In this document: positions 15,229 through 62,396 of the stretch, piece by piece
Layout of the letters: each line of letters opens with the position of its first letter
Numbering within the stretch: position 1 is the first letter of the stretch
Assembly: GCA_029288805.1 (NCBI GenBank)
Contig: JARIGO010000022.1
Coordinates: forward strand, 30,754 to 94,753
Direction of reading: 5' to 3'
From: Candidatus Nomurabacteria bacterium
GTDB taxonomy: Bacteria; Patescibacteriota; Minisyncoccia; Phycocordibacterales; UBA9973
Length of the DNA stretch: 64,000 nt
The notes under the pieces: model-generated
Databases searched by the model: none
What the model was told of the DNA's origin: nothing
Seen by the model: only the letters and a program-made list of their open reading frames with translations
Position numbers and translations under genes: made by a program

Positions 15229-16614
15229 ATGTCTAAGTCTCCTATGGCCACTCACACACTTCGCATTCCTCCTCACGATCTTGAGGCTGAACAAGCGGTT
15301 CTTGGTGCCCTCATGCTTCGCCCGAGCGCTATTCACGATATTGTGGATTTGCTGACACCTGAAATGTTTTATGCCAAGAAGCACAGCATCCTGTACAAGA
15401 CCATTATTGAACTCTCCAACAAAAACGAACCAATAGACGTGCTGTCTGTAGCTGCAAAGCTCAAGGAAAAGAAATGCTTGGAAGAAATCGGCGGTAATGC
15501 CTACCTTAACGAGCTTATGGGCAACGTGCCTTCTACCGTGAACATTCGTCACTATGCTGAAATTGTCTACAAAAAGTACGTATTGCGCTCATTGATCGAT
15601 GCATCTGAAAACATTGCTACCATTGCCTACGATCAAAACGACATGGAAGTGACAGAAATATTGGATACTGCAGAAAAAAGCATCTTTCGTATTTCTTCTG
15701 GCATGAACACAAAGAATGCCTTTGTGTCTATTAAGAATTCCTTGATGGAAACAATGGAGCAGACCATTCGCCTCTCTGAATCAAAGGATGAAATTCGTGG
15801 TGTTCCTACAGGATATACGGATCTCGACGCATTGACTGCCGGCTTGCAAAAGTCCGACCTTATCATTCTTGCAGCACGTCCAAGTATGGGTAAGACAACG
15901 TTTGCCCTTGATATGGCACGTAACGTGGCATTGTCAGGCACTCCTGTCGGCATCTTTTCATTGGAAATGAGCGCGCAACAGCTCGTACAGCGTATGCTTT
16001 CAGCCGAAAGTCGCGTTGACGCCTGGAGTATTCGTACTGGTCACGGTCTTTCAACGCATCACTTCACCGCATTGCAGGAAGCGGCGAGCCGTTTGCAAAA
16101 GGCTCCTATCTACATTGATGACCAGGCTGGTAACTCTATCGTCAAAATGCGTTCCGTGGCACGCCGCCTCAAGAGTGAACACGGCCTCGGACTTATCGTT
16201 GTGGACTACTTGCAGCTCATGACTACCAGTAAGAGCTACGACAATATGGTGAACCAAGTGACAGAAATCTCTCGTTCATTGAAGCAATTGGCTCGTGAAC
16301 TTGATGTTCCAGTACTTGCATTGTCACAGCTTTCTCGTGCCGTTGAATCACGCGGCGGTCGTCCTCGTCTTTCTGACCTTCGTGACTCTGGTTCCATTGA
16401 GCAAGACGCCGACTTGGTTATGTTCATTCACCGTGAAGACCGCTACAAGGAACAGCACGAAAAGGACAACATTACTGAAATCCTGATTGAAAAACACCGT
16501 AACGGTGCGGTTGGTATGGTGCAACTGCTCTTTGATGGCAAGACTACGTCATTCTTGAACATGGACAAGACGCATGTGCCGGTACAAAAGGCCGCATCTC
16601 TTGATGACTTCTAA
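15229..16614 (+). CDS. dnaB: replicative DNA helicase
   Basis: 461 aa. N-terminal PPHDLEAEQAVLGALML, Walker A ARPSMGKTTFALD, and the RecA-like C-terminal domain. Confidence 0.95.
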   Translation: MSKSPMATHTLRIPPHDLEAEQAVLGALMLRPSAIHDIVDLLTPEMFYAKKHSILYKTIIELSNKNEPIDVLSVAAKLKEKKCLEEIGGNAYLNELMGNVPSTVNIRHYAEIVYKKYVLRSLIDASENIATIAYDQNDMEVTEILDTAEKSIFRISSGMNTKNAFVSIKNSLMETMEQTIRLSESKDEIRGVPTGYTDLDALTAGLQKSDLIILAARPSMGKTTFALDMARNVALSGTPVGIFSLEMSAQQLVQRMLSAESRVDAWSIRTGHGLSTHHFTALQEAASRLQKAPIYIDDQAGNSIVKMRSVARRLKSEHGLGLIVVDYLQLMTTSKSYDNMVNQVTEISRSLKQLARELDVPVLALSQLSRAVESRGGRPRLSDLRDSGSIEQDADLVMFIHREDRYKEQHEKDNITEILIEKHRNGAVGMVQLLFDGKTTSFLNMDKTHVPVQKAASLDDF

Positions 16615-17236
16615 TATGCATAACGACTCAGTCGATCGACTCGCAAAACTCTTTTTGAAATTTCCCGGGATTGGTGAACGCCAAGCCCGTCGTTTTGCAT
16701 ACTTTATCCTGACCCAGCAGGAAGGCTATGTGGATTCGCTTGCGAGAGCGCTTGTAGCAGCGCGCACCCATGCCAATACCTGCGCGCGCTGTCTCCGCAT
16801 CTTCGAAGGCTCTGTAGAATCTTCTGGTGGTCTCTGCAACATTTGTAGCGATGAACACCGCGACCAAAGCAGTATTGTTGTTGTAGAAAAAAGTCAGGAT
16901 ATCGAAAGTTTCAATCGCACTGACTATAACGGCCTCTTCTTCGTATTAAACGGCCTCATTCCTATCGTGCAAAAAGACATCATTGCCGGTACTAATGCCC
17001 AAAAACTTATTGATCGCGTACGAAAAGATACATCTGAGAATGTACTACAAGAAGTCATCCTGGCATTTCCTGTTACTCCAAACGGCGAACATACCGACAG
17101 CGCCATCCGCGAACTGCTCTCACCTATTTCCCTTGACCTAACCATTACCTCCCTCGGCCGCGGCCTCTCTACCGGCGCAGAACTCGAATACGCCGATCCG
17201 GCATCCCTTGAAGCGTCACTTAAAAAGCGAGAATAA
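16604..17236 (+). CDS. recR: recombination protein RecR
   Basis: HhH segment LAKLFLKFPGIGERQARRFAYFIL, C4 zinc finger CARC...CNIC, and a Toprim domain. The start overlaps the dnaB end. Confidence 0.9.
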   Translation: MTSNMHNDSVDRLAKLFLKFPGIGERQARRFAYFILTQQEGYVDSLARALVAARTHANTCARCLRIFEGSVESSGGLCNICSDEHRDQSSIVVVEKSQDIESFNRTDYNGLFFVLNGLIPIVQKDIIAGTNAQKLIDRVRKDTSENVLQEVILAFPVTPNGEHTDSAIRELLSPISLDLTITSLGRGLSTGAELEYADPASLEASLKKRE

Positions 17237-31060: not shown

Positions 31061-32347
31061 TTATTTCACTTCTACCGTTATGCGATCTGATTTATACGGG
31101 AAATACGGCGCCCAAAACGGAAATAATGAGTATTGTGCCGTGTCTATTTCTTGAATTCCGCTTAAGGCACCCATAAATGACCCGCGTGATATGCCCAAAA
31201 CGTCTTGTTTAACGGCATCAAGCGGTACGTTGGTAATGATGGTACCCGTTCCAGAAACATCAAGACTGATTGAGCTAGGAATGCCATTTGGATCTGTAGG
31301 CAACGCTGTCATTGGTGTCACATGAATGCCTCCAAGATCCGGAATGCTCACGTCGGGATAGACATGGTCACTGATAGCTTTTGCCGCTATTGCCTGCTCA
31401 AAACCGTCTCGAGGAACAAGGTATGACACCATAGTACCTTTCAAGGTAGCAGAAAACTGAATAGTATTTCCTTGCAAGACGGTGGCATTGTTATCGATGG
31501 CAGTAAACTGCAGACTTGGAAACGTTATAAGGTTGCTTGGAATCTGTGAACTGGTTTCTCGAGACAGTTTCTCTTCCAAGGCTGCCTGCAGTGTTGCCAA
31601 CGCTTGTTGTTTGTCAGCATCAGAAAGAGTATGCATTGCCCCGTTTTGTCCACCCGTGATGGCACCCGCAGAGCTAGCGTAAAAAGTTTTTGAATTAGCA
31701 CCTGTCCAACCGCTAATGGTAAATGTAGTGCCGTCGGAATTATACGCAGGGCCAACACCTGCGGCAGTGATGGCTACCGTTGCACTGCCGGCAGTTTTTT
31801 TGTTACCAGTTCCCGTGTACCCAGGAACACTGACCGTGGCAGTAGTCACATATTTCTCGCCATTGGCGCCAGTTAGCGTGGTGCCGCTGCGTACAGTCTG
31901 ACTCTTTGTGCTGTATTGATTGAAAATGACGGCCTGACCGGTAGCCTTTGTGGTACTAGTAGTCATGGCTGAACCAAAGACCTGACGCGTTACCGAGTCA
32001 GTTACTACCATAGTTTGGAATGACAGGCGGCCCGGATCTGCAATGTTTTGATTTTGCACGTCGACTTCGGTATCAAGCAGTGAGAATGGGATTTGGCGCT
32101 GAGTGACGATAACCTTGGCATGCACAAAAATCATGCCGCCAAGATAGAGCAAAACAATAAAAGCCAATGCTCCTCCTACGATAAAGATTTTCTTCCATCG
32201 AGAACGTGGAGACTCCTCTATATATGTCTTTTCTATAATGCGAGGACGGCGTGGTGGCTGAGCAGGCAATGTCGCCTCCTTGTCCAAGTCATGCTCGCCT
32301 TTGTCTTGGTGATCCTTGCGAATCACGTCATAGAGTTTCAATGCCAT
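31061..32347 (-). CDS. hypothetical bitopic membrane protein: basic cytoplasmic N-terminus, one TM, Thr/Gly/Ala-rich extracytoplasmic domain
   Basis: 428 aa. TM at about residues 55-77. The large T/G/S-rich region suggests a surface or stalk protein. No confident family match. Confidence 0.45.
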   Translation of the reverse strand: MALKLYDVIRKDHQDKGEHDLDKEATLPAQPPRRPRIIEKTYIEESPRSRWKKIFIVGGALAFIVLLYLGGMIFVHAKVIVTQRQIPFSLLDTEVDVQNQNIADPGRLSFQTMVVTDSVTRQVFGSAMTTSTTKATGQAVIFNQYSTKSQTVRSGTTLTGANGEKYVTTATVSVPGYTGTGNKKTAGSATVAITAAGVGPAYNSDGTTFTISGWTGANSKTFYASSAGAITGGQNGAMHTLSDADKQQALATLQAALEEKLSRETSSQIPSNLITFPSLQFTAIDNNATVLQGNTIQFSATLKGTMVSYLVPRDGFEQAIAAKAISDHVYPDVSIPDLGGIHVTPMTALPTDPNGIPSSISLDVSGTGTIITNVPLDAVKQDVLGISRGSFMGALSGIQEIDTAQYSLFPFWAPYFPYKSDRITVEVK

Positions 32348-32354
32348 ATCAGTA

Positions 32355-33512
32355 TTATATCAATCGTTCAATAAAAAGCGCGCCGAGTGCCAAGCCGGTA
32401 TCAGGTTGCTCCATGCTGATAACCTTTATAGAGGATGAAAGGTTAAGAATGTCCACAAAATGCACATCAATCTCTGAAACGGCTGCGCTATGCAGTAAGA
32501 ACGGATCGGTACTGATAGTTTGACTAAATACATTTTCAAAGCGATGGTCAGACACAACATAGCAATCCGAAGGAAATCGCACGCTGGTATTGCCTTGATC
32601 AACAAGCGCATGAAAACCTTTCTGCCAGGTAGCGGAAAAAGACTGTAATGCTTTTTCAATAACACGACCGTTATTTGGAGAAAGTTTCTTAAGGCGGTAT
32701 GCCTCCACCAATGTGCGGGCTTCCATAAGACTGCCAGTCACATTGCTCAATGTGCGATAGAGTTCATATGTACCAACTGGAAATGACTGTTGGGAAATAA
32801 CAGCACTGTTTTTTACAAATGCCACATCCGTCACTTCTTCACCAACATCAACGATGACGCAATCCTTGGCAATGCCGCCATTGTCACGAAGAGCCACGAA
32901 TGCAGCGTATGAGCCAGTGGTAACCTGTATCTTTCGATCACCATAGCTCCGGCGCAGGATACTGGTAAAGCGTTCTGCTACAACCTTTGGTATAAGCGTG
33001 ACATGGAGGACGATTTCAAGCGATTGCACTTTTTTGCCATACGGATCGGCAGTTTCATAGCCATTCAACAGCACATGCGAGAGTTGCTGTTCAGCCAACG
33101 CAAACGTATCTCCAAGCTTTTGATTGTCACCGTCAGGCTGTTTCAGCAAAAAGGCAATTTCCTTTTCAATAAGCGAGTCAACAAGACGCTGCGTGCATGA
33201 AAATGCCGTTGCTCTGTTGTATGTAATAGTGCGCGTGTAGGAGTTATACCACGGTGAACCCAATACTACCTGAATCATGGAAGGATGGTGCACATCCGCA
33301 GTGCGAACATGCTGTATGACGGTTTCCAATGTCTTGGCAGTGTCCTCAACAAAGCGCTCTATGGTTATTTCTTCCTCAAGACCGCTATCACGACGTTCTT
33401 GTACAAGGATAGTGACAGAATTTTTTCCATCGACGTGTTCAACCAATGCATGCGCACCACCAACACTACTCGAACTAATATCAAAGACAGCAACTGCAGT
33501 GCTTTTACTCAT
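32355..33512 (-). CDS. actin-like ATPase-fold protein (PilM/FtsA-like ASKHA family)
   Basis: 385 aa. The N-terminal VAVFDISSSSVGGA phosphate-1-like motif and CVIVDVGEEVTDVAFV phosphate-2-like motif are typical of the FtsA/PilM/MreB fold. Confidence 0.5.
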   Translation of the reverse strand: MSKSTAVAVFDISSSSVGGAHALVEHVDGKNSVTILVQERRDSGLEEEITIERFVEDTAKTLETVIQHVRTADVHHPSMIQVVLGSPWYNSYTRTITYNRATAFSCTQRLVDSLIEKEIAFLLKQPDGDNQKLGDTFALAEQQLSHVLLNGYETADPYGKKVQSLEIVLHVTLIPKVVAERFTSILRRSYGDRKIQVTTGSYAAFVALRDNGGIAKDCVIVDVGEEVTDVAFVKNSAVISQQSFPVGTYELYRTLSNVTGSLMEARTLVEAYRLKKLSPNNGRVIEKALQSFSATWQKGFHALVDQGNTSVRFPSDCYVVSDHRFENVFSQTISTDPFLLHSAAVSEIDVHFVDILNLSSSIKVISMEQPDTGLALGALFIERLI

Positions 33513-35359: not shown

Positions 35360-37177
35360 TTAGGCACGCTTCTGAGTCTTAAGCCACGCCGCATACTTTT
35401 GGGACATATCTTCAAAACTTTTCTTGTTGTTTGCAATAACCTCCTTACCGCTGACAAGCGTGATATGAGCATCTAGGTTAATAGATTTCTTATAGTGAGG
35501 CTTTTTAGAAAGGGTTTCAATTCGTTCCTTTGCGGTTTTTAGAACAGAAGGAATGGAACGGGTTACATTTCTTATATAGGGCATAGCAGAAAGTTTTTTA
35601 CCAGTGGCAATTTTAACGAGTTCAGGAAAAGTTTTTGATGAACCATACTTCCAGACCTTTTTCATTTCCTTGGCTATGTGTGGATTGTCTACGATATATC
35701 CATACTTCTTAAAGAAGTATTCACGCCACTGCGAAAGCGCCAATTCCGCTAACGCATATCCCTGATATCCACACGCATTATCCCATGCATAAATATGAGG
35801 AACTCCCAGTACCCACAACGAATCAGCCGAGTAGTCGGAATACTTTTTCATTGCTTTCTTTGCAGCCGCAATAACCTTTTCTCCGGTAAGATTTTTTATT
35901 TCGTATACTTCTTTTTCAAAACCGCACACGCACATCAAACTCATCATGCCGAGCGGCTGTATAACGTGCAACGCCCTAACCCTCCGTTCAAAAAACGAAA
36001 ATGGGTATATTTCCCCTGCAGGATTTTTAGCATACCGAGATCTCCATTCTATGCTTGAGAAGACAGTATCGAGAAACATGCTTTGGGTTTCAGCCCACGC
36101 AGTTGAAGATGGTGGGTATTCATTATTAACACAAACATCTTTCATCTCCACGTTTAGCAAGTGAGCGGCATGTCCACCTTCATGAAAAAGCGTTTCAAGA
36201 CCCAAAGAAGATTGACCCGGTAAGCCGAGTACAACGTTGCATGTTAGCTGGGCCCTTCCAGGGATACGCTTCTTTCCCTCAAAGCGAATTGGTTCCGGCC
36301 AATGACAAAAGCCGTTGTCATATTTGCCCGCTCTGTCCAACAAATCAAACACCAACGCACTGCCTTGATATGTAATGCCAAGGGCAGCAAACGACTTACC
36401 CCATCGATCCAGGCTTTCTTCAAAAGGATAATATTGATCTTCCTCTTTCACAAAAGATCCAGCCATCATATAAGAAAAGTTCCACGGCTTGCGTAAGCCA
36501 GGCATGGTCTTTTCAAGCTTACGAATGTTTTCGAATCCATATTTTGTCTTTTCATAAATAGTGTCAAACAGCGTAAAGAGTTCCTTTTTGGTCATGCCTT
36601 CTTCAGTATCAAGCTTGAAAGCATAAAAATCCTCATAGCCCAATATCCTGGCATATTCATTACGCAACTGCACCAATGTTACATAGCGGTCTACACTTTC
36701 CAAGTTAAGCTTGGTCATGGCGTCAAAACACGCCTTGCGAACTGCTTCATCATCGGAGGTTCCTATTAATGACCTCATTGCATTTCTTGCTGCCTTTATA
36801 AATTTTCCAGTCTTGGGATCAATGTATCCTTCCTTGCGAGTAGCGTGCACCGTTTCAATTTTTGTTTCCAGTGCATTGATTTTTTCCTTAAGCGCACGAG
36901 CTTCTACGGGAACTTGGTATAGTGAAAAGAATCGCTGCCAGTATCCAAGTCGCTCTTTTGTTTCTCCGGTACTATGCTTGATATATTCATCAACTGCGTT
37001 TTTTAACATTTCATTAGCACGAAACTCATTGCGAGCTTTTGAGGCCAATTCTTTTTTGTCATTAACACTATGGTCACCCATAAAGCTGATCCAGAACAAG
37101 TCTTCAAATGTGGTGTGAATCTTTGAGTAAGTCGTATTGAGATAATGTAACAGCTCATCTGCGTTTTTCCATTTCAT
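35360..37177 (-). CDS. zinc metallopeptidase, M3 (oligoendopeptidase F-like) family
   Basis: 605 aa. HEGGHAAH zincin motif about 390 aa from the N-terminus. Length and helical architecture fit PepF/M3B; M32 is not excluded. Confidence 0.55.
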   Translation of the reverse strand: MKWKNADELLHYLNTTYSKIHTTFEDLFWISFMGDHSVNDKKELASKARNEFRANEMLKNAVDEYIKHSTGETKERLGYWQRFFSLYQVPVEARALKEKINALETKIETVHATRKEGYIDPKTGKFIKAARNAMRSLIGTSDDEAVRKACFDAMTKLNLESVDRYVTLVQLRNEYARILGYEDFYAFKLDTEEGMTKKELFTLFDTIYEKTKYGFENIRKLEKTMPGLRKPWNFSYMMAGSFVKEEDQYYPFEESLDRWGKSFAALGITYQGSALVFDLLDRAGKYDNGFCHWPEPIRFEGKKRIPGRAQLTCNVVLGLPGQSSLGLETLFHEGGHAAHLLNVEMKDVCVNNEYPPSSTAWAETQSMFLDTVFSSIEWRSRYAKNPAGEIYPFSFFERRVRALHVIQPLGMMSLMCVCGFEKEVYEIKNLTGEKVIAAAKKAMKKYSDYSADSLWVLGVPHIYAWDNACGYQGYALAELALSQWREYFFKKYGYIVDNPHIAKEMKKVWKYGSSKTFPELVKIATGKKLSAMPYIRNVTRSIPSVLKTAKERIETLSKKPHYKKSINLDAHITLVSGKEVIANNKKSFEDMSQKYAAWLKTQKRA

Positions 37178-40737: not shown

Positions 40738-42006
40738 CTATATAGGAAGATTTGATGGAGGCTGCGCCTTAGTTGCCTCAATACGCACAAAGCTTGAAGT
40801 CTCTGCTACTCGACCCGGTAGGTGGAACAATGTTGCCAACTCTTCGGTTGAAAGAATGTATGCCTTGCCTCCGTTGATTTCAGGATAGGTAGTGTATGTC
40901 TTTGGATTTTTAAGATCAAACCCTCCATAGAAAAATGCGCGCGCCTTGTATGCTCCCAACAAGTCTTTCTTCTTTTTGATAATCTTGCTGCCAGTCAGAT
41001 CCTGCCATGGGAAATCAAATGCGGTAGCACCGTCAGGCTTGAAACCGTTATAGTCAGAAGCCCCGTACTGACGCACCATGCCAGTCACTCCTGCAATGCG
41101 ATTGGCATCAAACTTGTCTTTCTGAGTGATATATATAGTACGAATACCCGCATCAAAACCGATCTTGCTTGCATTGCGCTCAATGGCTTCAATGACCATT
41201 TGTTCACCCTTCGTGGCACGACGCGTTGCAATGGTTTTTCCCTCTTTGTCTTTTTCCGTCAGGCTGGCATTAAAATCTCTGATGACCTGCTTAACCTTGT
41301 CGGTCCACGCCTTGTTTGACTCTTCTTCACCCTTGCTGTTCTTAACAGTAAACCGATTGGTGGCTCCACGTACCAAAATTTGAAACCAGATCTGTTCTCC
41401 CACGCCAATGGAGCCCATGAATTCTAGCATCGGCGTAATAGGATCGATACGCTGCTCTTCATCCAATGAGCCGACGGCGCGATCAAGTCCGTATTCAATA
41501 TATGTCTTGATCGGATACACTTCCTCTTTGTTGGTAAGCGCAAAGTTACAACCCCACAACTGGATGGGACCATCCTTGGTAAAGTCCGGCACTGACTCGG
41601 TGTAATCCTCGACTTCTGTCACCTCTGCTTGTGGATACTGGGCGTAAACTTGTGATTGGATAATGCTCTTGAACTTTACTGACGTACGAATATAAAAATG
41701 AATGGATCCTTCAATGGAAACGATTTCAAGCGAGAACCAGTTGCGCACCGCTCCGCCCCAGTATTTTTGCAGCCAGTTGCCGTGTCCTCCTGTTTGGTAC
41801 AAGGAGTTCAGCACAAGTTCCATAGCCAATGGTGATTTGAAAACTTCCTTTGGCGGCTTAACTTCAAGCAGAGTCCACTTTATGGAACGTAAAAAAAGCG
41901 TCTGAATGTAACTCATCCAGAGATGCCACGCCAAGTATGAAAGAAGGGGTATGGCAATGATCAGCTCGATACATTGAACAATGAACGAGGAGCTCGGGTT
42001 TTGCAT
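40738..42006 (-). CDS. hypothetical N-terminally membrane-anchored protein of unknown function
   Basis: 422 aa. One N-terminal TM, then a mixed alpha/beta domain with no recognisable catalytic motif. Lies immediately downstream of the pilin-like gene. Confidence 0.45.
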   Translation of the reverse strand: MQNPSSSFIVQCIELIIAIPLLSYLAWHLWMSYIQTLFLRSIKWTLLEVKPPKEVFKSPLAMELVLNSLYQTGGHGNWLQKYWGGAVRNWFSLEIVSIEGSIHFYIRTSVKFKSIIQSQVYAQYPQAEVTEVEDYTESVPDFTKDGPIQLWGCNFALTNKEEVYPIKTYIEYGLDRAVGSLDEEQRIDPITPMLEFMGSIGVGEQIWFQILVRGATNRFTVKNSKGEEESNKAWTDKVKQVIRDFNASLTEKDKEGKTIATRRATKGEQMVIEAIERNASKIGFDAGIRTIYITQKDKFDANRIAGVTGMVRQYGASDYNGFKPDGATAFDFPWQDLTGSKIIKKKKDLLGAYKARAFFYGGFDLKNPKTYTTYPEINGGKAYILSTEELATLFHLPGRVAETSSFVRIEATKAQPPSNLPI

Positions 42007-42590: not shown

Positions 42591-43625
42591 TTATTTCTTT
42601 GCAACCGTATAGGTGCCGTTATCGAGCTTGGTAAAGTATTTTGCGTTCTGAAGATTTACAAGAATTGTATTCTTCTTGAGGAAACGTTCCTTAAGTACGC
42701 GATCAACAACTTCTTCCTTTGTCATTGGGCCTTCCTTAACCAAAATTTCCTTGATGACGTCACGAACCACACCTGGTTTGTAACCCCATTCAGCCAAGGC
42801 ATAGTAGCCGCGACCAACAAGCACGAAGCGAGGGTCTTTGATCAATTCATTGTGAGTAGTTGCAATGTGAGTCTTGCGACCGAATGTATCAACGATAGCC
42901 TTTGCCACTTCACGGAAGTGCATTGGAGAGCCATGCTTACGCATCATGAGGAATGCATAGTCCTTGATACCGCGAGTCTTGATATTTTGTGACTGAGCAG
43001 GACCCCATTCGCCCAGGGGGTTAACGCCGATCTTCTTTGAGATATTCAACCAACGACGAGCAATTTCCTCGTTTTTGTACTGAGCAGCTACGCCTTTCAA
43101 TTCATCAAGAAAACGAGTTACGAGGTCATCCTGACTGAGCAATTCCTTGTCATCAAGACTCTTGTATACGCGATGAAGGGCACTGTGAATAACTTCTGAC
43201 AATTCCTCATCAACAGTCCAGCGAGTTTGGAAGTGGTCGTCTTCCTTGAGCTTTTTGAACTCGTCACCGAGTACCATATAAAAACGAATGTGGTTTTGCA
43301 CTGACTTATCCTTAGACACATAAGAAAGGAAGTCGTCTTCATGGACCATGGCGCCCATAGCTTCTACCAAGCCTTTGAGTTCAGTAAATACCTTGTGTTC
43401 AGCCTTAAACGCATCGCTTTTGCGAATGGCAGCAAGAGCCGCGTTTTCGATTTGACGAACGCGTTCACGAGTAATGCCATATTTCTTTCCGATTGCCTCA
43501 AGCGTCTTTGAATCCGCATTGTCTTCAAGACCATAGCGGTTGACGATGATGTCATGCGCGCGGTCCTGCAAATTTGAGAGCAGGCGCTTGCTGACTTGTT
43601 TAGGTTTAAAACTGATAGTTGCCAT
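42591..43625 (-). CDS. two-HTH protein: N-terminal sigma-70 region-4-like domain fused to a C-terminal HARE-HTH winged helix
   Basis: Residues about 14-68, RAHDIIVNRYGLEDNADSKTLEAIGKKYGITRERVRQIENAALAAIRK, follow the sigma70_r4 consensus. Residues about 225-300, GSPMHFREVAKAIV...IATTHNELIKDPRFVLVGRGYYALAEWGY, follow the HARE-HTH consensus found in RNAP delta. Confidence 0.5.
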   Translation of the reverse strand: MATISFKPKQVSKRLLSNLQDRAHDIIVNRYGLEDNADSKTLEAIGKKYGITRERVRQIENAALAAIRKSDAFKAEHKVFTELKGLVEAMGAMVHEDDFLSYVSKDKSVQNHIRFYMVLGDEFKKLKEDDHFQTRWTVDEELSEVIHSALHRVYKSLDDKELLSQDDLVTRFLDELKGVAAQYKNEEIARRWLNISKKIGVNPLGEWGPAQSQNIKTRGIKDYAFLMMRKHGSPMHFREVAKAIVDTFGRKTHIATTHNELIKDPRFVLVGRGYYALAEWGYKPGVVRDVIKEILVKEGPMTKEEVVDRVLKERFLKKNTILVNLQNAKYFTKLDNGTYTVAKK

Positions 43626-45325: not shown

Positions 45326-45361
45326 ATGAGAGCTGCTGAGCAGCTCTCATCGTTTTTTTTT
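45326..45361 (+). terminator. strong palindromic hairpin with a T9 tract on the plus strand, located between two minus-strand genes
   Basis: ATGAGAGCTGCT-g-AGCAGCTCTCAT followed by CGTTTTTTTTT. Confidence 0.4.
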
Positions 45362-45989
45362 ACAAGACCATACTGGCTGCGTATTCCAGTACGTACTTTG
45401 TTGGAAGATTGCCGGCAAAGAGCATACCCTTGGCTTTGTAGATGATATCCGCTTTCTGGGGCGTCTTACGCACGTAGGCTTCGAGCATGTCGAGCATTTC
45501 TACGGCTTTGGCACGACGCGTTGCAGCATCGTCTTCAGCATCACTGGCAAATTCTTCCTTGATCTGTGCTAGCAGCCCCTCTCTACTCAGGGGTCGAACC
45601 CCCAAGTCAGGAGATCCGACCTCCTGAGTGGCGGTGTGCAAAAGCATGACGCGAGAACGAATAGTGATCGGTACGAGATATGGATACGGCGTCATTAAAA
45701 CAATAGTCGTATCCAGATCTGGTTCTTCGAGTGCTTTCAAAATAATCTGTGCGGCATCCGGAGAAAAGACGGAAAAGAAAATAATGTACAAACGATCAGT
45801 GCCAGTGCCTTCATTGACGAACTCTACCAATGCTCGAGCATGATCTGTCGTAAATCGTGGTACTGACAACGCGCTCGTGAACGGATTCTGAATCATGGCA
45901 GTCGCCAAAAAACTATCAAAGTCCTTTTCGCTGCTTTGTATGAGAAATGTTTTTTGCGGAGCGAGTATTGCAACGTCATCAATAGTCAT
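45360..45989 (-). CDS. DNA polymerase III delta-prime-like (HolB-like) clamp-loader subunit, short and without a P-loop
   Basis: 209 aa. LKALEEPDLDTTIVLMT resembles the box VII region and IRSRV resembles sensor 2. No Walker A is present. Confidence 0.45.
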   Translation of the reverse strand: MTIDDVAILAPQKTFLIQSSEKDFDSFLATAMIQNPFTSALSVPRFTTDHARALVEFVNEGTGTDRLYIIFFSVFSPDAAQIILKALEEPDLDTTIVLMTPYPYLVPITIRSRVMLLHTATQEVGSPDLGVRPLSREGLLAQIKEEFASDAEDDAATRRAKAVEMLDMLEAYVRKTPQKADIIYKAKGMLFAGNLPTKYVLEYAASMVL

Positions 45990-46001
45990 ATCACTATTGT
46001 A

Positions 46002-47021
46002 CTACCGCTTTGCAAGAATGGAACGCTTATAGTCATCAAGGTGTCCAAGCAAGATACCAGTACCTTTCGCAACGCAGTACAGAGGATCATCAGACAGGCG
46101 AACCTTTACGCCGGTTTGCTCCTGAATGAGTTCAGCCAAATTTTTCAATGAAGACGTTCCTCCGGTCATAACGATACCGTAGTCGATAATATCTGATGCA
46201 AGCTCAGGTGGAGTATTTTCCAATACAGTCTTGATAGCCTTGATAATAATTTCCAATTCATACTGAATGGCCTTTACCAATTCATTGGTAGTGATAGTAA
46301 GCGTTTTTGGGAGACCGGTAACAATATCTCGTCCTTTGACCTCTCCGCTAACGTCGGGGCTAACAGGCAATGCGGAACACAATGTCTTCTTTACTTCTTC
46401 TGCTGTTTGGTCACCAATAGCGACATTGTACGTATGACGAATGTAGTCGATGATGGCTTGGTCAAACTTATTACCAGCGCATTTCACTGATGTTGAAGCG
46501 ATGATACCGCCAAGTGAAATTACGGCCACGTCAGTAGTACCTCCACCAATATCGATGACCATGCATCCGCGAGGTTCATTAATAGCAATACCTGCACCAA
46601 GCGCTGCAAGGATTGGTTCCTTTACAATGATGGCAGTACGCGCGCCAGCTTTCATGGTTGCCTCAATGACAGCGCGACGCTCTGTGGAAGTGATGCCAAC
46701 AGGTACAGACACAAGTACATCAGGCTTGAAGAGCGATGTTCGACCCAAGGCTTTGTTGATGAAGTGATGCAGCATGGCATACGTCACGGTGTAGTTGGCG
46801 ATGGCGCCATCCTGCATAGGGCGGTGTACAGAAACAGAGTCAGGATTCTTCCCCAACATGTCCTTGGCATCGTTACCGATAGCCTCAATAGTGCGAGTGG
46901 TACGGTTCACGGCCACCACGGTCGGCTCATTGAGCACAATGCCCTCACCTGCCATAAATACCAAGGTATTGGCAGTACCCAGGTCGATACCAAGCTTCTT
47001 TTTTCCAGGAAGTTTCCACAT
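46002..47021 (-). CDS. mreB: rod shape-determining actin homolog MreB
   Basis: KKLGIDLGTANTLVF and the full MreB signature set. 339 aa. Confidence 0.95.
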   Translation of the reverse strand: MWKLPGKKKLGIDLGTANTLVFMAGEGIVLNEPTVVAVNRTTRTIEAIGNDAKDMLGKNPDSVSVHRPMQDGAIANYTVTYAMLHHFINKALGRTSLFKPDVLVSVPVGITSTERRAVIEATMKAGARTAIIVKEPILAALGAGIAINEPRGCMVIDIGGGTTDVAVISLGGIIASTSVKCAGNKFDQAIIDYIRHTYNVAIGDQTAEEVKKTLCSALPVSPDVSGEVKGRDIVTGLPKTLTITTNELVKAIQYELEIIIKAIKTVLENTPPELASDIIDYGIVMTGGTSSLKNLAELIQEQTGVKVRLSDDPLYCVAKGTGILLGHLDDYKRSILAKR

Positions 47022-48926
47022 ATGAATGACTATAGTATAGTGGCGTTAATGTTTATTGCAACAGTCATTCCTATCAGCAAAGGCATTCCTTTTGACACTC
47101 TGAGTTATTTCAGCGGTGAGCAGCTTGCTGTCGGTACCATTGTGTCTGTGCCATTTGGCAAGCAAAAGATCAATGCCATCGTTGCAGAGTGCCAAAATCT
47201 GTCCGAAGCCAAGACTGCCGTCAAGCAAGCCTCCTTTTCCATGAAAAAAATTTCCGCGACGGTCGGTCACGTGCCACTGCTTGGGGCCGTCATCGACGGT
47301 TTGCAGGACACTGCAGCCCGAACACTGACCCCGCTCGGCGCCATTGCGGGAGCTGTCATGCCGCAAAGTCTTTTTGAATACGTTACGCCCGAAAAAATAG
47401 TAACCGCGTCAGACGCGGCTTCTCTTGAAAGTGAAAAGCAGAAGTTTACCGAGACAAGTGTTGCCGGAACTATCGATACTCGTGCTGACTACTACAAGCG
47501 ATTGATTCGCACGAGCTTTGCCGCAAAGAAAAGCATTCTCTTTATTGCGCCAACCATTAAAAACTTGGAACAATGGAAGACAACATTACAAAAAGGCATC
47601 CCGAAGCATGTAGTCAGCGTGCATAGCAAGACTACAAAAAAGGAATTGCGCAGCGCGTTTGCATTGATTAAGCAAAGTGACCGGCCGTTGATCATTTTTG
47701 CAACACCAGGATTCAGCGTCCTGCCTCGACATGATATTGGCTCCATCATAGTGGAAGACGAGAGCAGCAGTCTCTTCAAAACCAGCGACCGTTTCAAAAC
47801 TGATCTTCGCATTTTCTTGGGAGCATTTGCCAAGGCTGCAGAAATGCAGCTGTACTGGGGAGACACCATTCCTCGCTTCGAGACATTGGAGCGTACCAAG
47901 AACACGCACATGCCTCGCACCTTTATTCCTGACAAGCTGACCGTCGTGCCAGTAGAGCCATACCGCACCGTACTGCCAACAGAAGTGGTAGAGATCATTC
48001 GCCATGCTGAAAAGAAAAAGAAACGCCTCTATATATATGCCAACAGAAAAGGCGTGGCGCCACTGTCTCGCTGTAGCGATTGCGGCACCATCGTGACCTG
48101 TGAAGTCTGCGGCTTGCCGATGGTATTGAGAAATAGACGAAATGCTGAAGGGCAAGAGGAACGGTACTTCGTGTGCTCGCACTGTACTGCCACCTTACCA
48201 GCGACACACACCTGTAGTTATTGCGGCAGTTGGAATATCACGCCGATATCAATCGGTACGGAAAGCATCCGAGATGCTGTTGCCGCATTGGTAGGAACAG
48301 ACGTCATTACCACTATCGACGATGACCTGACACCAGACGGCACGACCATCGCTTCACTACTCGCGCAAAGTGAAAAGCAAAAGTTCACCATCATCATTGG
48401 CACTATCAAGGTATTGCCATTTCTCAAAAATATTAACTACTGTCTCTTTCCGTTTTTTGACCGACTGCTTTCTACACCATCACTCTATACGACAGAAAAT
48501 ACACTTCGCTTAGTAATGGAGTGCAATGAAAAAGCCGAAGACGGCGTGCTGCTCTTCACACGTCAGGCAGACTTTCCATTGATCAAGCAGTTGGAAACGC
48601 AAAAGCTCAACGCCATCATTCATGATGAACTGCAACTGCGCGAAGAAATCGGCTATCCACCGTACGGCAGCATCATAAAAATCAGCCTGACTATTCCTGA
48701 GGGATACAGACTCGCTGTCATAGAAAAAGTGCAACGCTTTGTAGAAAATATGGAAGCGACAATGATGCCACCACGCCGCATCAGCGCCGGCAGCATGAAA
48801 GTCCTCCTGACCTGGATTATCAAAACTACGGCCAACTACATAGAAGAGGAAGGTCCAACTCTCGGCGCATTTCTTTCCACCCTGCACTTCCCTTACCTAA
48901 TCGAAGAAAACCCTGAAAGACTATAA
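47022..48926 (+). CDS. primosomal protein N' (PriA) homolog with degenerate helicase motifs
   Basis: 3'-DNA-binding-domain-like N-terminus (VSVPFGKQKINAIVAEC) and the PriA Cys-rich zinc-binding region (CSDCG..CEVCG...CSHC...CSYCG). Where Walker A GxGKT should be, the sequence reads VAGTIDTRADYYKRL. The start codon abuts the mreB start codon. Confidence 0.65.
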   Translation: MNDYSIVALMFIATVIPISKGIPFDTLSYFSGEQLAVGTIVSVPFGKQKINAIVAECQNLSEAKTAVKQASFSMKKISATVGHVPLLGAVIDGLQDTAARTLTPLGAIAGAVMPQSLFEYVTPEKIVTASDAASLESEKQKFTETSVAGTIDTRADYYKRLIRTSFAAKKSILFIAPTIKNLEQWKTTLQKGIPKHVVSVHSKTTKKELRSAFALIKQSDRPLIIFATPGFSVLPRHDIGSIIVEDESSSLFKTSDRFKTDLRIFLGAFAKAAEMQLYWGDTIPRFETLERTKNTHMPRTFIPDKLTVVPVEPYRTVLPTEVVEIIRHAEKKKKRLYIYANRKGVAPLSRCSDCGTIVTCEVCGLPMVLRNRRNAEGQEERYFVCSHCTATLPATHTCSYCGSWNITPISIGTESIRDAVAALVGTDVITTIDDDLTPDGTTIASLLAQSEKQKFTIIIGTIKVLPFLKNINYCLFPFFDRLLSTPSLYTTENTLRLVMECNEKAEDGVLLFTRQADFPLIKQLETQKLNAIIHDELQLREEIGYPPYGSIIKISLTIPEGYRLAVIEKVQRFVENMEATMMPPRRISAGSMKVLLTWIIKTTANYIEEEGPTLGAFLSTLHFPYLIEENPERL

Positions 48927-48965: not shown

Positions 48966-49190
48966 ATGTCAATGACCAATGTAGAAATCAAGAGAAACGG
49001 GACCGAAAACGCTTTGGGTGTTATTCGTCGTTTTACTCGCAAGATGCAGGAATCACAAATCATTCCTAAAGTGAAAGGCCAGCGCTATGCAGTTCGCCCA
49101 ATCTCAAAGCTTGCGGAAAAGAACATGAAAGTAAAGCGCCTTGCACGACGCGTAGAAGTTGAAAAACTCAAAAAGCTCGGCAAAATGTAA
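48966..49190 (+). CDS. rpsU: 30S ribosomal protein S21-like
   Basis: 74 aa and very basic. GVIRRFTRKMQESQI...RYAVRPISKLAEKNMKVKRLARR resembles S21. Confidence 0.55.
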   Translation: MSMTNVEIKRNGTENALGVIRRFTRKMQESQIIPKVKGQRYAVRPISKLAEKNMKVKRLARRVEVEKLKKLGKM

Positions 49191-57447: not shown

Positions 57448-58335
57448 TTATCGAGGGAAAATATCGAGCAATTCGTTTGACTGGTAGAACAATGTACCAA
57501 GCTCGCCAAAGGCATATTGCTGACCACCGAGCGTAATGGTAGAACCCGCAACCTTAGGATTGGCATTTGGGTGTGAGGCACCAAATCCAATATTAAAGAG
57601 CGTTACCACGACATCCGGACGAGCGGTAACGTCATATCCAGACGCAGCCCATTGCGCTTCAATTTCCTTGATGAAGACCGCCGTATACAAATATGAGTAA
57701 TAGTGGTTGTGTGCATCAGTAAGACGGTTGTACAAGGTACTGTCATGATCTGCACCTGCAGGATATGCCAAGAGCGGTGCAATATTTGGACCAGGATAAA
57801 ACGGTGAGCTTGGATCGTTGGCATAGTTTTCGATCTGCGTAGCAGTATCCTGCTTGATGCCGGACACTCCCAATGAGAACTTGGACAATGAGGAAAGAAT
57901 CTTTAACGGTTCAAAATATTTCTTGAAACTTTCGCGGTTGGAAGTGAAATATCGCAATTGCTCCGGTATGACTGCAGCGGCAATCATGCGCTCTGGCACG
58001 CCCGTCTGACTTGAAACCTGCTCCAAGACACTGCCGTCTTTTGTGAGCGCATTCTGCAAGACATTCCATTCCTCGGTCTGATCCCAGTCACATGTCTTTG
58101 GCGTCTTGCCATTCACTGCCTGACAGGTGCTCGTCACTGTTGTGTTGGGCACAGCACCAAGAGAAACATTACGAACAGCGCTGGAGCCACGAACATTAAA
58201 GAGTCCGTACTGCATTGCCACAAAGACACCGGCAAAGACCAAACCGATGAACGCGAATAGCAGGATGATGATAAATACATAGCGGCGGATGCCAAACTTA
58301 GTATTGAGCCAGGAGAATGGGCGGAATTTTTTCAT
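57448..58335 (-). CDS. hypothetical N-terminally anchored extracytoplasmic protein
   Basis: 295 aa. One TM near the N-terminus, then a Cys-containing globular domain. No family assigned. Confidence 0.45.
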   Translation of the reverse strand: MKKFRPFSWLNTKFGIRRYVFIIILLFAFIGLVFAGVFVAMQYGLFNVRGSSAVRNVSLGAVPNTTVTSTCQAVNGKTPKTCDWDQTEEWNVLQNALTKDGSVLEQVSSQTGVPERMIAAAVIPEQLRYFTSNRESFKKYFEPLKILSSLSKFSLGVSGIKQDTATQIENYANDPSSPFYPGPNIAPLLAYPAGADHDSTLYNRLTDAHNHYYSYLYTAVFIKEIEAQWAASGYDVTARPDVVVTLFNIGFGASHPNANPKVAGSTITLGGQQYAFGELGTLFYQSNELLDIFPR

Positions 58336-59702: not shown

Positions 59703-60290
59703 CTATATCAAACGAAATACTGCGACAATAAACAATATCAGACCAAGAATAAACGAGGAGATGAAGGCGTAATAAATTATATTCAAAAAAAGTGCAGAGG
59801 AAGGCTTCATATTATTAGCAAACCTTTTGTTCTCCTCAATACTGTCTTCATTATACTGATCTATTTCTTCCGTAGTGAGAGTATTATCGTTCGCACTCAT
59901 TAGTATCGGCTTTATTAAGTCCAGTTGTTTCCCAAGCGACTTCATTTGTATGTCAGCGATCTTATTTAAATCCTTCCTGTCTTTTATTGGAGCATAAATA
60001 CTTAGAATAAATCCAAGTATGAACGTCAGTATAAATACATACATATCTGATCGAAGAATGATGTGGCTGAAATGTAGTGAAGACTGAAGAGCTAATGGGA
60101 TTACCACACCAACCACAACTATGCTGGCACTGATCAAAGCTAAATTTAGATTGTATTGTTTATCAGAAGTATTACGAAGTCCCTCTTGAATAAATTCAAC
60201 TTGAGAGTGATAAATGTCAGTTATTCTGTCTCTTGACCGTGAATATTCTTGCTTCGCGAGTTCCATTTGTTTTACAGAAAGTTGTGACAT
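59703..60290 (-). CDS. hypothetical membrane protein (AT-rich gene)
   Basis: 195 aa. N-terminal charged coiled segment and 3-4 TM helices. GC is noticeably lower than in the core genes. Confidence 0.45.
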   Translation of the reverse strand: MSQLSVKQMELAKQEYSRSRDRITDIYHSQVEFIQEGLRNTSDKQYNLNLALISASIVVVGVVIPLALQSSLHFSHIILRSDMYVFILTFILGFILSIYAPIKDRKDLNKIADIQMKSLGKQLDLIKPILMSANDNTLTTEEIDQYNEDSIEENKRFANNMKPSSALFLNIIYYAFISSFILGLILFIVAVFRLI

Positions 60291-61658: not shown

Positions 61659-62396
61659 TTGATGAAAGAAAGTATTCCATTAATAGACCCAATTTGGTAT
61701 TCCCCCGTTGTGGTGTTAAACCATGTTACAAGACTGACAAATTCACTATCTGAAAAAGACAGGAAGAGTAAGGAGTTTAGGAAGGTTGTTGAGGCACGAG
61801 CAGCCGCAATTACGCTTTTGGGTTTGATGAAGATTAACGGTACTCAATATTGGATGCAGATTGTGGATGATAAAGAGAGAAGCCCCGACATAAGAACTAT
61901 TTCCTATGCGACGGAGCAGCCGGAAAAATTTGACAACATGGAGCAGCAAGATGTCGAGGTAGTTGAATATGAGCAACATTCAGAAGGGGCCATTCCGGAG
62001 TTCTTAGCCTCGACCAAGTTTGGGCCCGGAAAGAGTTACGACGAGCAAACCCATATTCTTTGCCACCTGGGAGAAGGGACTGTCATAAATTTACCTGATA
62101 TTACTGAGATGAAAAACCAAATGGCCATAATCAATACAAAATCACCGATAGTATTATTAGGGGCAACTTCTCAGGAAGCCACTGACTATCAAATTATTCA
62201 ATTGAATCCCGGTGTTGGTATTTTGGTTGAATTCAACGTTGAGGATGAGGAGCGCATTTTATTCGGAAGGCCCGACTATAAAGGTATCATGTATTTTAAA
62301 AGGGGCTCAAGAAAACCCAGTGTGCATGATCCTAACGATAAGCATTATCCATTTGAAAATATAGGATATGTTCCTGATAAAAATGGCAATTATTGA
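61659..62396 (+). CDS. hypothetical protein
   Basis: 245 aa, soluble and acidic, in an AT-rich context. No motif assigned. Confidence 0.45.
   Translation: MMKESIPLIDPIWYSPVVVLNHVTRLTNSLSEKDRKSKEFRKVVEARAAAITLLGLMKINGTQYWMQIVDDKERSPDIRTISYATEQPEKFDNMEQQDVEVVEYEQHSEGAIPEFLASTKFGPGKSYDEQTHILCHLGEGTVINLPDITEMKNQMAIINTKSPIVLLGATSQEATDYQIIQLNPGVGILVEFNVEDEERILFGRPDYKGIMYFKRGSRKPSVHDPNDKHYPFENIGYVPDKNGNY

Follow-up and report, generated by a model that had tools for sequence, protein, structure and literature searches.

A conserved PriA homologue without helicase motifs, encoded divergently from mreB in a Candidatus Nomurabacteria genome

The gene at 47049-48926 of the window (the whole 64,000-nucleotide stretch of Candidatus Nomurabacteria DNA that was analysed) encodes a genuine and strongly conserved PriA homologue in which every motif for ATP binding and hydrolysis has been replaced. 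We consider it likely, with a probability of about 0.7, that the product is the organism's PriA orthologue, acting as a catalytically dead fork-recognition factor and primosome scaffold, and that its gene is expressed from a bidirectional promoter shared with mreB. The homology, fold, loss of motifs, conservation, selection and taxonomic spread are established in this analysis. An earlier note on this DNA had proposed a helicase-dead PriA serving as a primosome scaffold. The loss of all ATP motifs, together with the retention of the fold, the 3'-DNA-binding domain, the zinc region and purifying selection, supports that proposal, for which the PriA of Deinococcus radiodurans provides a characterised precedent (PMC4504706).

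Results

The window protein is a divergent PriA with a complete domain set

The only Pfam match of the window protein is the PriA 3'-DNA-binding domain (PriA_3primeBD, PF17764), with a score of 28.2 bits (cut-off 22.7). The NCBIfam model TIGR00595 matches with an E-value of 5.6e-40 and 137.4 bits, short of its curated cut-off of 230.35, and all scores with the PRK05580 and PRK14873 models fall far under their own cut-offs; these sub-threshold scores mark the protein as a divergent member of the PriA family. Klebsiella pneumoniae PriA (4nl4) is matched at an E-value of 1.5e-24 (HMMER), and identity to the canonical PriAs (E. coli K230R and the 4NL4, 6DGD and 8FAK group) is only 17-20%. The relationship is also evident in the AlphaFold model (pLDDT 88.5, pTM 0.86), for which the best nine Foldseek matches in the PDB are all PriA structures (E-values of 2e-37 to 2e-25, TM scores of ~0.62-0.72), followed by Mfd at 1e-10. 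The PriA domain set is present, with the 3'-DNA-binding domain, two RecA-like lobes, the Cys-rich zinc insert of lobe 2 and the C-terminal domain. Coordinates of these and all other features are collected in Table 1.

In the model the 3'-DNA-binding domain adopts a beta-rich fold at E2-E50, and its PFGK motif (G37), Y20 and K66 are conserved among relatives. The register at the pocket residues D17/Y18 of E. coli PriA is ambiguous between alignments (FD=FD versus LSY=FDY), and our statements about the pocket are limited to these three elements. The eight cysteines of the Cys-rich region (C342, C345, C351, C354, C376, C379, C389 and C392) are invariant, canonical PriAs included, and presumably bind two zinc ions; in E. 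coli PriA this region is tied to primosome assembly. The C-terminal domain is an alpha/beta structure modelled with confidence at E541-E620 (pLDDT >90) and, in the alignment, closes with a DPExLL-like ending common to the window protein and the canonical CPR PriAs. A winged-helix domain of the E. coli/Klebsiella type is absent, the segment between the 3'-DNA-binding domain and lobe 1 being ~83 residues shorter than in Klebsiella PriA. The winged-helix insertion appears in the alignment only in Bacillus PriA; since the canonical CPR PriAs also lack it, this domain is not universal to the PriA family.

Table 1. Features of the priA-like locus, and dnaB, in window coordinates
Feature	Position	Strand	Remarks
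dnaB, replicative helicase	15229..16614	+	Pfam DnaB_C 342 bits, DnaB 122 bits
mreB, divergent neighbour sharing the promoter region	46002..47021	-	translation; tblastn
-35-like hexamer TTTCCA, priA promoter	47013..47018	+	inside mreB codons 2-3
mreB-priA spacer, 27 bp, ATGAATGACTATAGTATAGTGGCGTTA	47022..47048	.	includes non-conserved ATG 47022-47024
Conserved, predicted bidirectional -10 core AGTATAGT	47034..47041	.	promoter scan and conservation
priA-like gene, probable PriA pseudohelicase	47049..48926	+	625 aa plus stop; corrected CDS; homology, fold, dN/dS
3'-DNA-binding domain, N-terminal, aa 1-105	47049..47363	+	PF17764; conserved PFGK, Y20, K66
-35-like hexamer TTGCAA, mreB promoter	47056..47061	-	inside priA codons 3-5
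Degenerate motif I (Walker A), AGTIDTRADYY for GVTGSGKTEVY	47463..47495	+	alignments with Klebsiella, canonical CPR and Bacillus PriAs
Degenerate motif II (Walker B/DExH), EDES for DEEH	47754..47765	+	alignments; E236, E238 invariant
Degenerate motif III, GDTIP for G(S/D)ATP	47859..47873	+	alignment; D272 invariant
Cys-rich region, four CxxC pairs	48072..48224	+	CSDC, CEVC, CSHC, CSYC
Degenerate motif V, IIIGTIKVLPFL for LIGTQMxxKGxDF	48390..48425	+	alignment
Degenerate motif VI, VMECNEKAED for TQVAGRTGRG	48513..48542	+	alignment; arginine fingers lost
C-terminal domain, aa ~541-625, end NPERL	48669..48926	+	model and alignment

The helicase motifs have been replaced

The segment VAGTIDTRADYYKRL (47460-47504) aligns exactly at GVTGSGKTEVY of canonical PriAs. 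GSGKT has become IDTRA, which places R145 at the position of the catalytic lysine and removes the P-loop glycines, and in the model only 2 residues separate the strand at 134-139 from the helix at 142-158. At motif VI, QVAGRxGR is replaced by MECNEKAE, in which N493 and E494 each reach 90% conservation or more within the clade. The window protein gives no match to Pfam DEAD, ResIII or Helicase_C, all of which match canonical CPR PriAs. Three alignments bear on the register of the motifs, one made by HMMER against Klebsiella PriA and two by MAFFT, of which the first took in 112 relatives and the second the canonical CPR and Bacillus PriAs. For motif I the second MAFFT alignment is used, because the truncated Klebsiella fragment is misaligned there in the large family alignment. 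A mere shift of intact motifs is ruled out by the agreement of the three alignments and by a regular-expression scan of 391 collected proteins, in which members of the pseudohelicase family contain neither G....GK[ST] nor GR.[GA]R at the motif positions; the full motif set occurs among the 391 only in a canonical protein, P0391.

The earlier note had described a PriA homologue with a 3'-DNA-binding-like N-terminus and a Cys-rich zinc-binding insert, a degenerate Walker A and no clear DExH box. Each part of that description agrees with the matches and alignments above: the Pfam, TIGR00595 and 4nl4 scores for the homology, PF17764 for the N-terminus, the four CxxC pairs for the insert, IDTRA and EDES for the two motifs. 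Its proposal that motifs I, II and VI are lost holds against Klebsiella, Bacillus and canonical CPR PriAs alike, and its reservation that intact Walker motifs might lie out of register is answered by the three alignments, which contain none.

The replacements are conserved under purifying selection across a large CPR branch

The residues that replace the motifs are themselves conserved: this is true of 112 full-length relatives and of each of the 150 best 50%-identity cluster representatives. R145, E236, E238, D272 and the eight cysteines do not vary among 63 relatives whose identity is 46-82%, R145 is also invariant across the wider PriA-like family, and the pattern of motif loss recurs in relatives at 31-35% identity. 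dN is 0.12-0.19 with dS saturated, giving an omega of at most ~0.04-0.08, which argues that the ORF is not a pseudogene. Decay, raised in the earlier note as a possible refutation, is excluded by this value together with the invariant columns and an ORF that is intact in the genomes of more than 110 relatives.

Two narrower accounts of the distribution were also discarded. The degeneracy is not limited to one small lineage, being common to all 150 representatives, and it is not general to CPR bacteria, since the PriAs of Doudnabacteria and some Parcubacteria are canonical. Motif-less PriA is apparently common to a large branch of the ultra-small CPR/Patescibacteria that includes Nomurabacteria, Vogelbacteria and Paceibacterota-type genomes. 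A literature search on PriA in CPR/Patescibacteria yielded nothing relevant, the sole paper with both terms concerning another phylum.

The gene most likely starts at 47049 and probably shares a promoter with mreB

At CATATG (47019-47024) an in-frame ATG at 47022 touches the ATG of mreB, and a purely mechanical ORF call could reach back to this codon or as far as 46764. The contact reported in the earlier note is real, but the start that it placed there is most likely not. In relatives whose proteins are 73-82% identical the 47022 ATG reads AGG, CTG, GGG, GCG or GTG, and in three orthologous loci (L001-L003) the equivalent position is followed by an in-frame stop. The position equivalent to 47049, by contrast, is ATG in 48 of 49 orthologous loci and GTG in the other, and most database orthologues have 622-625 aa with the N-terminus MYIATVIPI, a few entries being annotated with a MNDYSIVAL extension. 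A start at 47022 is rejected on these grounds, and the true CDS is most likely 47049-48926, encoding 625 aa and leaving 27 bp between the two genes. This spacer is 25-27 bp long in 23 of 49 orthologous loci.

The note's further claim that the two genes leave no room for divergent promoters rested on the wrong ATG: a -10 hexamer for each gene lies inside the spacer. Its fallback, a later start or promoters reaching into the neighbouring coding sequence, was essentially right, with the start at 47049 and each -35-like hexamer in the opposite gene. On the + strand, 7 nt separate TATAGT (47036-47041) from the priA ATG, in a candidate promoter TTTCCA-17-TATAGT; on the - strand, the distance from TATACT (47039-47034) to the mreB ATG is 12 nt, in a candidate promoter TTGCAA-16-TATACT. 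Each promoter matches at 9 of 12 positions in the promoter scan. The AGTATAGT core was found in 47 of 50 loci, with a distance from the - strand hexamer to the mreB ATG of 12-13 nt in 41 of 47 loci and from the + strand hexamer to the priA ATG of 6-7 nt in 23 of 47. With an overlap of 4 bp, the two -10 hexamers would put the divergent transcription start sites ~21-22 bp apart.

This arrangement suggests that one compact bidirectional promoter drives priA and the divergent mreB. TATAGT stands only 7 nt before the priA start codon, a distance that predicts a priA mRNA without a leader, its 5' end at the ATG at 47049 or 1 nt before it, and the mreB mRNA would carry a leader of ~6 nt or none. Leaderless starts free of Shine-Dalgarno sequences are common across the window: a TATAAT-like hexamer lies 6-7 nt before the ATG in 12 of 50 window genes (0.54 expected by chance), and a Shine-Dalgarno core precedes only 2 of the 50. 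A search of the literature on leaderless mRNAs in CPR bacteria returned nothing specific. A plus-strand TACAAT, conserved in many orthologues, is an alternative priA -10 element that would give a leader of ~15 nt.

Accounts of bidirectional promoters (Warman et al., 2021; PMC10268837, PMC12825309) describe pseudo-symmetrical -10 elements to which RNA polymerase can bind facing either way, binding in one direction excluding binding in the other; they define such promoters by divergent start sites 7-25 bp apart, the usual optimum being 18 bp with reciprocal pairing of -7T and -11A. The predicted spacing of ~21-22 bp lies within that range. The mreB-priA promoter differs from those of the Warman type in that its hexamers are offset by 2 bp and it yields mRNAs of conserved genes in both directions, one transcript being predicted to lack a leader.

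Gene neighbourhood

In tblastn comparisons with the 51 orthologous loci, the mreB alignment begins at residue 1 with few exceptions. The mreB gene is divergent from the priA-like gene in all 51, and also beside the more distant family member at L052, and is not adjacent to it at L054 and L055. Distant members (L052, L054) lie in the classic priA-def-fmt arrangement. Downstream of priA the window carries rpsU-ybeY-ftsA-ftsZ, and the neighbours that distant members have in common with the window are frr and holB-like plus mreB, or ybeY-ftsA-ftsZ. The DnaB encoded in the window has an intact Walker A motif (SMGKTT) and is the presumed client of PriA-directed loading. Pfam searches detected no priB, dnaT, dnaD or dciA among the 41 window proteins, a result that applies to these 64 kb and carries no inference for the whole genome.

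Discussion

A proposed fork-recognition scaffold that would act without ATP

With the P-loop, the DExH box, motif III and the arginine fingers of motif VI replaced, ATP binding and hydrolysis by the window protein would be impossible, and ATPase activity has probably been lost throughout the pseudohelicase family, to judge from its sequences. Abandoned forks or D-loops would most likely still be recognised through the 3'-DNA-binding domain and the DNA-binding surface of the helicase core; the PriA-like protein would then nucleate the reloading of DnaB through protein-protein contacts, leaving any fork remodelling that is needed to other factors. DNA and fork binding, DnaB recruitment and the loss of ATPase are expected by analogy with two characterised proteins. 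D. radiodurans PriA has an arginine for the Walker A lysine and a degenerate Walker B motif; it neither hydrolyses ATP nor unwinds DNA, yet it associates with ssDNA and forks and contacts DnaB (Lopper, Boone & Morrow 2015, PMC4504706). The K230R variant of E. coli PriA (priA300) has lost its ATPase and supports restart (PMC5778457).

The window protein resembles D. radiodurans PriA in the arginine at the Walker A lysine, the degenerate Walker B motif, the lineage-wide retention under selection and the expected role, which would be to bind forks and recruit DnaB with no hydrolysis of ATP. It differs in coming from the Patescibacteria/CPR phylum and in the extent of the loss, which takes in every P-loop glycine as well as motifs I, II, III, V and VI, whereas the account of the Deinococcus protein stresses motifs I and II (PMC4504706). 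PriA helicase motifs have been described as bacteria-wide with the exception of Deinococcus-Thermus (PMC4504706, PMC5778457). The canonical PriAs found to be closest to the window protein are those of CPR bacteria, and the CPR loss is therefore probably independent of the Deinococcus loss. With helicase-dead PriA already known experimentally from Deinococcus, the CPR family is apparently a second and much larger natural case.

With E. coli K230R and the 4NL4, 6DGD and 8FAK structures the window protein shares domain order and fold (TM ~0.7), but it lacks their winged-helix domain and is naturally without all of the catalytic motifs. The canonical short CPR PriAs (P0391; P0402 from 'Candidatus Doudnabacteria'; P0442/P0444 from the 'Parcubacteria group') are of about the same length (~670 aa), likewise lack the winged helix, and have the Cys-rich region and the DPExLL-like ending. 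Unlike the window protein, they keep GVTGSGKT, DEEH, GDATPS and QVAGRTGR, and they match Pfam DEAD, ResIII, Helicase_C, PriA_CRR and PriA_C where the window protein matches PriA_3primeBD only.

The invariant arginine at motif I and the two glutamates at motif II possibly allow some ligand to bind at the old active site. A more elaborate proposal, which we regard as unlikely, is that R145 (helix alpha-1), E236/E238, D272 and N493/E494 form salt bridges between the lobes, locking the core in an ATP-state-like, nucleotide-independent conformation, in effect a constitutive clamp on forks that is tied to mreB by the shared promoter. If true, the locked clamp would load DnaB in a minimal and possibly loader-poor CPR replisome, and the mutually exclusive use of the shared promoter would tie restart capacity to cell-envelope growth.

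Other readings of the locus

The same conserved residues could mean that the protein has left replication restart and become a DNA-structure sensor or scaffold, possibly linked to the co-transcribed mreB. We think this improbable. The very strong conservation of R145, E236, E238, D272, N493 and E494 does suggest a selected new feature, the divergence from mreB across a shared promoter holds at all 51 loci and at L052, and every curated PriA cut-off is missed. Yet the entire PriA domain set is kept, including the 3'-DNA-binding domain and the Cys-rich region, the priA-def-fmt synteny of distant members favours orthology, and dead D. radiodurans PriA still binds forks and contacts DnaB (PMC4504706). 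The absence of mreB beside the gene at L054 and L055 also makes its adjacency elsewhere look like inherited gene order.

Two further readings fare worse. That the protein is an active ATPase or helicase with non-canonical residues, Arg145 standing in for the lysine and E236/E238 serving as Walker B, is very unlikely: a basic residue does occupy the lysine position and two invariant acidic residues lie at motif II, but K230R by itself abolishes the ATPase of E. coli PriA (PMC5778457, PMC4504706), and the protein is without the P-loop glycines (its model leaving 2 residues for the loop), motif III, both motif VI arginines and any match to Pfam DEAD, ResIII or Helicase_C. It is hardly credible that the ORF is a decaying pseudogene or an annotation artefact with its true start at 47022 and no dedicated promoter. 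The extendable mechanical ORF and the few entries with MNDYSIVAL lend this some colour, against which stand the intact ORF in more than 110 genomes, the omega of at most 0.08, an upstream ATG that is not conserved and is stop-blocked in L001-L003, and conserved -10 hexamers at canonical distances from both starts.

Implications for comparison and annotation

If the window protein is a catalytically dead PriA, the sister CPR lineages that keep the motifs form a natural comparison set for the role of the PriA ATPase, one that also bears on replication restart in minimal-genome bacteria. Annotation is affected at two levels. Gene callers sometimes over-extend 5' ends into a leaderless promoter, and automatic annotation reports too few priA genes in CPR bacteria because the NCBIfam scores fall below cut-off and the 'hypothetical protein' label is applied. 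Proteins of the pseudohelicase family often carry that label in the databases.

PriA architecture and helicase motifs

The priA-like gene of the window encodes a PriA homologue, as an earlier note had proposed from the sequence, most likely of 625 residues. The protein scores above the cut-off for Pfam PriA_3primeBD (28.2 bits; cut-off 22.7), matches the NCBIfam PriA models with E-values of 1e-41 to 1e-20, and aligns over residues 132–554 with the sequences of the Klebsiella and E. coli PriA crystal structures (E 1e-24 to 1e-21). The curated NCBIfam cut-offs all lie far above its scores (for TIGR00595, 137 bits versus 230). Helicase motifs were read against K. pneumoniae PriA and against canonical PriAs of other Patescibacteria (CPR) and Bacillus, and their coordinates checked by translation. 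Motif I, canonically GVTGSGKTEVY, reads AGTIDTRADYY; motif II changes from DEEH to EDES, motif III from G(S/D)ATP to GDTIP, motif V from LIGTQMxxKGxD to IIGTIKVLP-F and motif VI from TQVAGRTGRG to VMECNEKAED. All these alignments uphold the note's description of degenerate ATPase/helicase motifs, and the four CxxC pairs that it listed are all present and invariant. Alignments of the degenerate CPR family show that the N-terminal 3'-DNA-binding domain (3'BD; PFGK, Y20, K66) and the Cys-rich region are kept, and that the segment following motif II is partly kept (SSxLYKTxDRxxxDxR versus SSYKQxxxPxYHAR).

An AlphaFold2 model built with 63 relatives is confident (pLDDT 88.5, pTM 0.86), and PriA structures make up all nine of its best PDB matches (E 2e-37 to 2e-25, TM 0.62–0.72), with Mfd, UvrB and RecQ far below. 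In the model, two residues separate strand 134–139 from helix 142–158, with no glycine-rich phosphate-binding loop between them. The winged-helix domain of enterobacterial and Bacillus PriAs is absent; canonical CPR PriAs likewise lack it in our alignment, so its absence is not tied to motif loss. The protein shares the architectural features of canonical PriA but lacks the defining catalytic ones and stays below the curated score cut-offs. Functionally and conceptually it appears to be a PriA pseudohelicase.

Conservation and taxonomic spread

The same motif replacements occur in 112 full-length homologues (46–100% identity), and the replacement residues are themselves kept: in the relatives' alignment R145, E236, E238 and D272 never vary, and conservation of N493 and E494 is at least 90%. 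For priA, dN is 0.12–0.19 and dS is saturated, therefore omega is at most 0.04–0.08, compared with approximately 0.025 for mreB. Together, the full-length relatives, conserved replacements and low omega rule out a pseudogene. Proteins from four more distant loci (L045, L046, L048 and L051; 31–35% identity) are also degenerate. An exhaustive profile search over 1.84 billion cluster representatives gave 9040 matches (697 at E ≤ 1e-30); none of the best 150 of these (27–59% identity) contains GKT, DExH or GRxGR, and the Walker A Lys position is an invariant Arg in the wider-family consensus. Named members of the degenerate family are Candidatus Nomurabacteria, Vogelbacteria, Paceibacterota, 'Parcubacteria group' and 'Patescibacteria group'. 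The search also caught a canonical protein, P0391 (GVTGSGKT, DEEH, GRTGR); its relatives carry the names Candidatus Doudnabacteria, Parcubacteria group or Patescibacteria group and have hits to Pfam DEAD, ResIII, Helicase_C, PriA_CRR and PriA_C. Since the best 150 matches are degenerate yet P0391 and its relatives are canonical, motif loss is not rare and marks one large CPR branch, though not the whole of the CPR.

Many GenBank MAGs with a Paceibacteria-type priA-mreB locus (e.g. L013–L022) are titled 'uncultured Candidatus Saccharibacteria bacterium'. These labels look unreliable, because the PriA and MreB of these MAGs group with those of Nomurabacteria/Paceibacterota.

Gene context and a probable scaffold role

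The classic arrangement, with def and fmt downstream of priA, is seen for distant degenerate members (L052 7902–9264; L054 3442–5345); downstream of the window gene lie rpsU, ybeY, ftsA and ftsZ instead. L052 shares the rseP-frr-holB-like-mreB side with the window and L055 the ybeY-ftsA-ftsZ side, and this context argues for the PriA orthology of the window gene. The window also encodes DnaB, the presumed client helicase, with intact Walker motifs (see table), so that the erosion is specific to PriA; a TACAAT lies 6 nt upstream of the dnaB ATG.

The suggestion of a helicase-dead primosome scaffold is favoured by the motif loss together with the kept 3'BD and Cys-rich region, and we consider it most likely because there are two experimental precedents. 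In D. radiodurans PriA, Arg stands for the Walker A Lys and Walker B is poor; neither ATPase nor unwinding activity is measurable, yet the protein binds ssDNA (Kd ~215 nM) and forks (~109 nM) and contacts DnaB (PMC4504706). The K230R variant of E. coli PriA is without ATPase, helicase and translocase activities, yet it remains able to support restart, both in vivo and in vitro (PMC5778457). By analogy, we infer that the degenerate CPR PriA lacks ATPase activity, binds DNA and contacts DnaB; it would recognise forks independently of nucleotide and, once bound, nucleate DnaB reloading. This kind of pseudohelicase is already known from Deinococcus-Thermus, and the CPR family is a further case, sharing the Lys-to-Arg change at Walker A (the CPR Arg is invariant) but differing in its phylum, in the completeness of its motif erosion and in having closely related canonical PriAs within the CPR. 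Our literature search found no paper on the CPR PriA pseudohelicase.

The priA start and the mreB-priA spacer

Window positions 47019–47024 read CATATG, so the ATG at 47022 does touch the mreB ATG as the earlier note claimed, but it is most likely not the priA start. The codon is AGG, CTG, GGG, GCG or GTG in relatives with 73–82% identical protein, and in L001–L003 a stop comes after it in frame, whereas at the position equivalent to 47049, 48 of 49 loci have ATG and the other has GTG. MYIATVIPI is also the N-terminus of most database orthologues (622–625 aa). The start-codon anomaly thus appears to be an annotation artefact.

The divergent mreB-priA pair is found in 51/51 genome loci, with a spacer of 20 to 77 bp (25–27 bp in 23/49). 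An 8-bp core, AGTA[T/G]N[A/G][T/C], is present in 47 of 50 loci; its minus-strand hexamer TATACT lies 12–13 nt from the mreB ATG in 41/47, and its plus-strand hexamer TATAGT 6–7 nt from the priA ATG in 23/47, window included, and otherwise at 17–36 nt. The predicted −10 elements of the two genes overlap within the spacer, which does leave room for promoters, contrary to what was first thought; the proposed alternatives of a promoter inside the neighbouring coding sequence or a later start fared better, given −35-like hexamers in the opposite gene's first codons and the ATG at 47049. A leaderless priA mRNA is predicted, and behind the anomaly there seems to be a neat, conserved promoter that is bidirectional and leaderless, with predicted TSSs. 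In prokaryotic bidirectional promoters the divergent TSSs are 7–25 bp apart, and polymerase binding in one orientation excludes binding in the other (PMC10268837; PMC12825309), a class that the mreB-priA region would fit with its predicted TSSs.

In loci with longer priA leaders (17–36 nt), a conserved (A)TGTAAAG lies 0–16 nt upstream of the ATG, between the −10 core and the start (L001–L003, L005, L007, L009, L010, L012, L030, L036 and L050). It may act in translation, as a signal other than Shine-Dalgarno, or in regulation; a true AAGGAGG occurs among these loci in L002 only.

Leaderless-type starts and other window genes

A TATAAT hexamer (5/6 or better) stands 6–7 nt upstream of the ATG in 12 of the 50 ATG-start window genes (0.54 expected, ~22-fold), and a Shine-Dalgarno core precedes only two (6727–8151 and ftsZ at 51136). 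Leaderless-type starts appear pervasive in the window, a general habit that the predicted leaderless priA would fit.

Features of the window
Feature	Position	Strand	Details
priA, mechanical ORF	46764–48926	+	
priA, corrected CDS	47049–48926	+	625 aa
mreB	46002–47021	-	
Predicted priA promoter	TTTCCA 47013–47018, TATAGT 47036–47041	+	promoter scan; 17 bp between hexamers
Predicted mreB promoter	TTGCAA 47061–47056, TATACT 47039–47034	-	promoter scan; 16 bp between hexamers
dnaB	15229–16614	+	Walker A (SMGKTT) and B intact
RecR-like gene	16574–17236	+	follows dnaB, 41-nt overlap; RecR_HhH, Toprim_4, RecR_C
Leaderless-type starts (examples)	31061–32347, 35360–37177, 40738–42006, 45360–45989, 59703–60290	-	TATAAT-like hexamer
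Leaderless-type start (example)	48966–49190	+	TATAAT-like hexamer
DNA polymerase III delta/delta'-like	45360–45989	-	209 aa; adjoins mreB
Sigma70 region 4/HARE-HTH protein	42591–43625	-	344 aa
ORFs without Pfam match (E ≤ 1e-5)	32355–33512, 40738–42006, 57448–58335	-	
ORF without Pfam match (E ≤ 1e-5)	61659–62396	+	

The four ORFs without a Pfam match are sizeable (245–422 aa) and have good leaderless-type promoters. The delta/delta'-like protein, conserved beside mreB in L052, matches only positions 99–157 of the PF13177 profile, and its N-terminal part lacks a P-loop; it appears to be one more short, P-loop-less protein of the clamp-loader-like kind. In the 344-aa protein an N-terminal Sigma70 region 4 is combined with a HARE-HTH domain, a pairing that is unusual among transcription factors or RNA polymerase accessory proteins.
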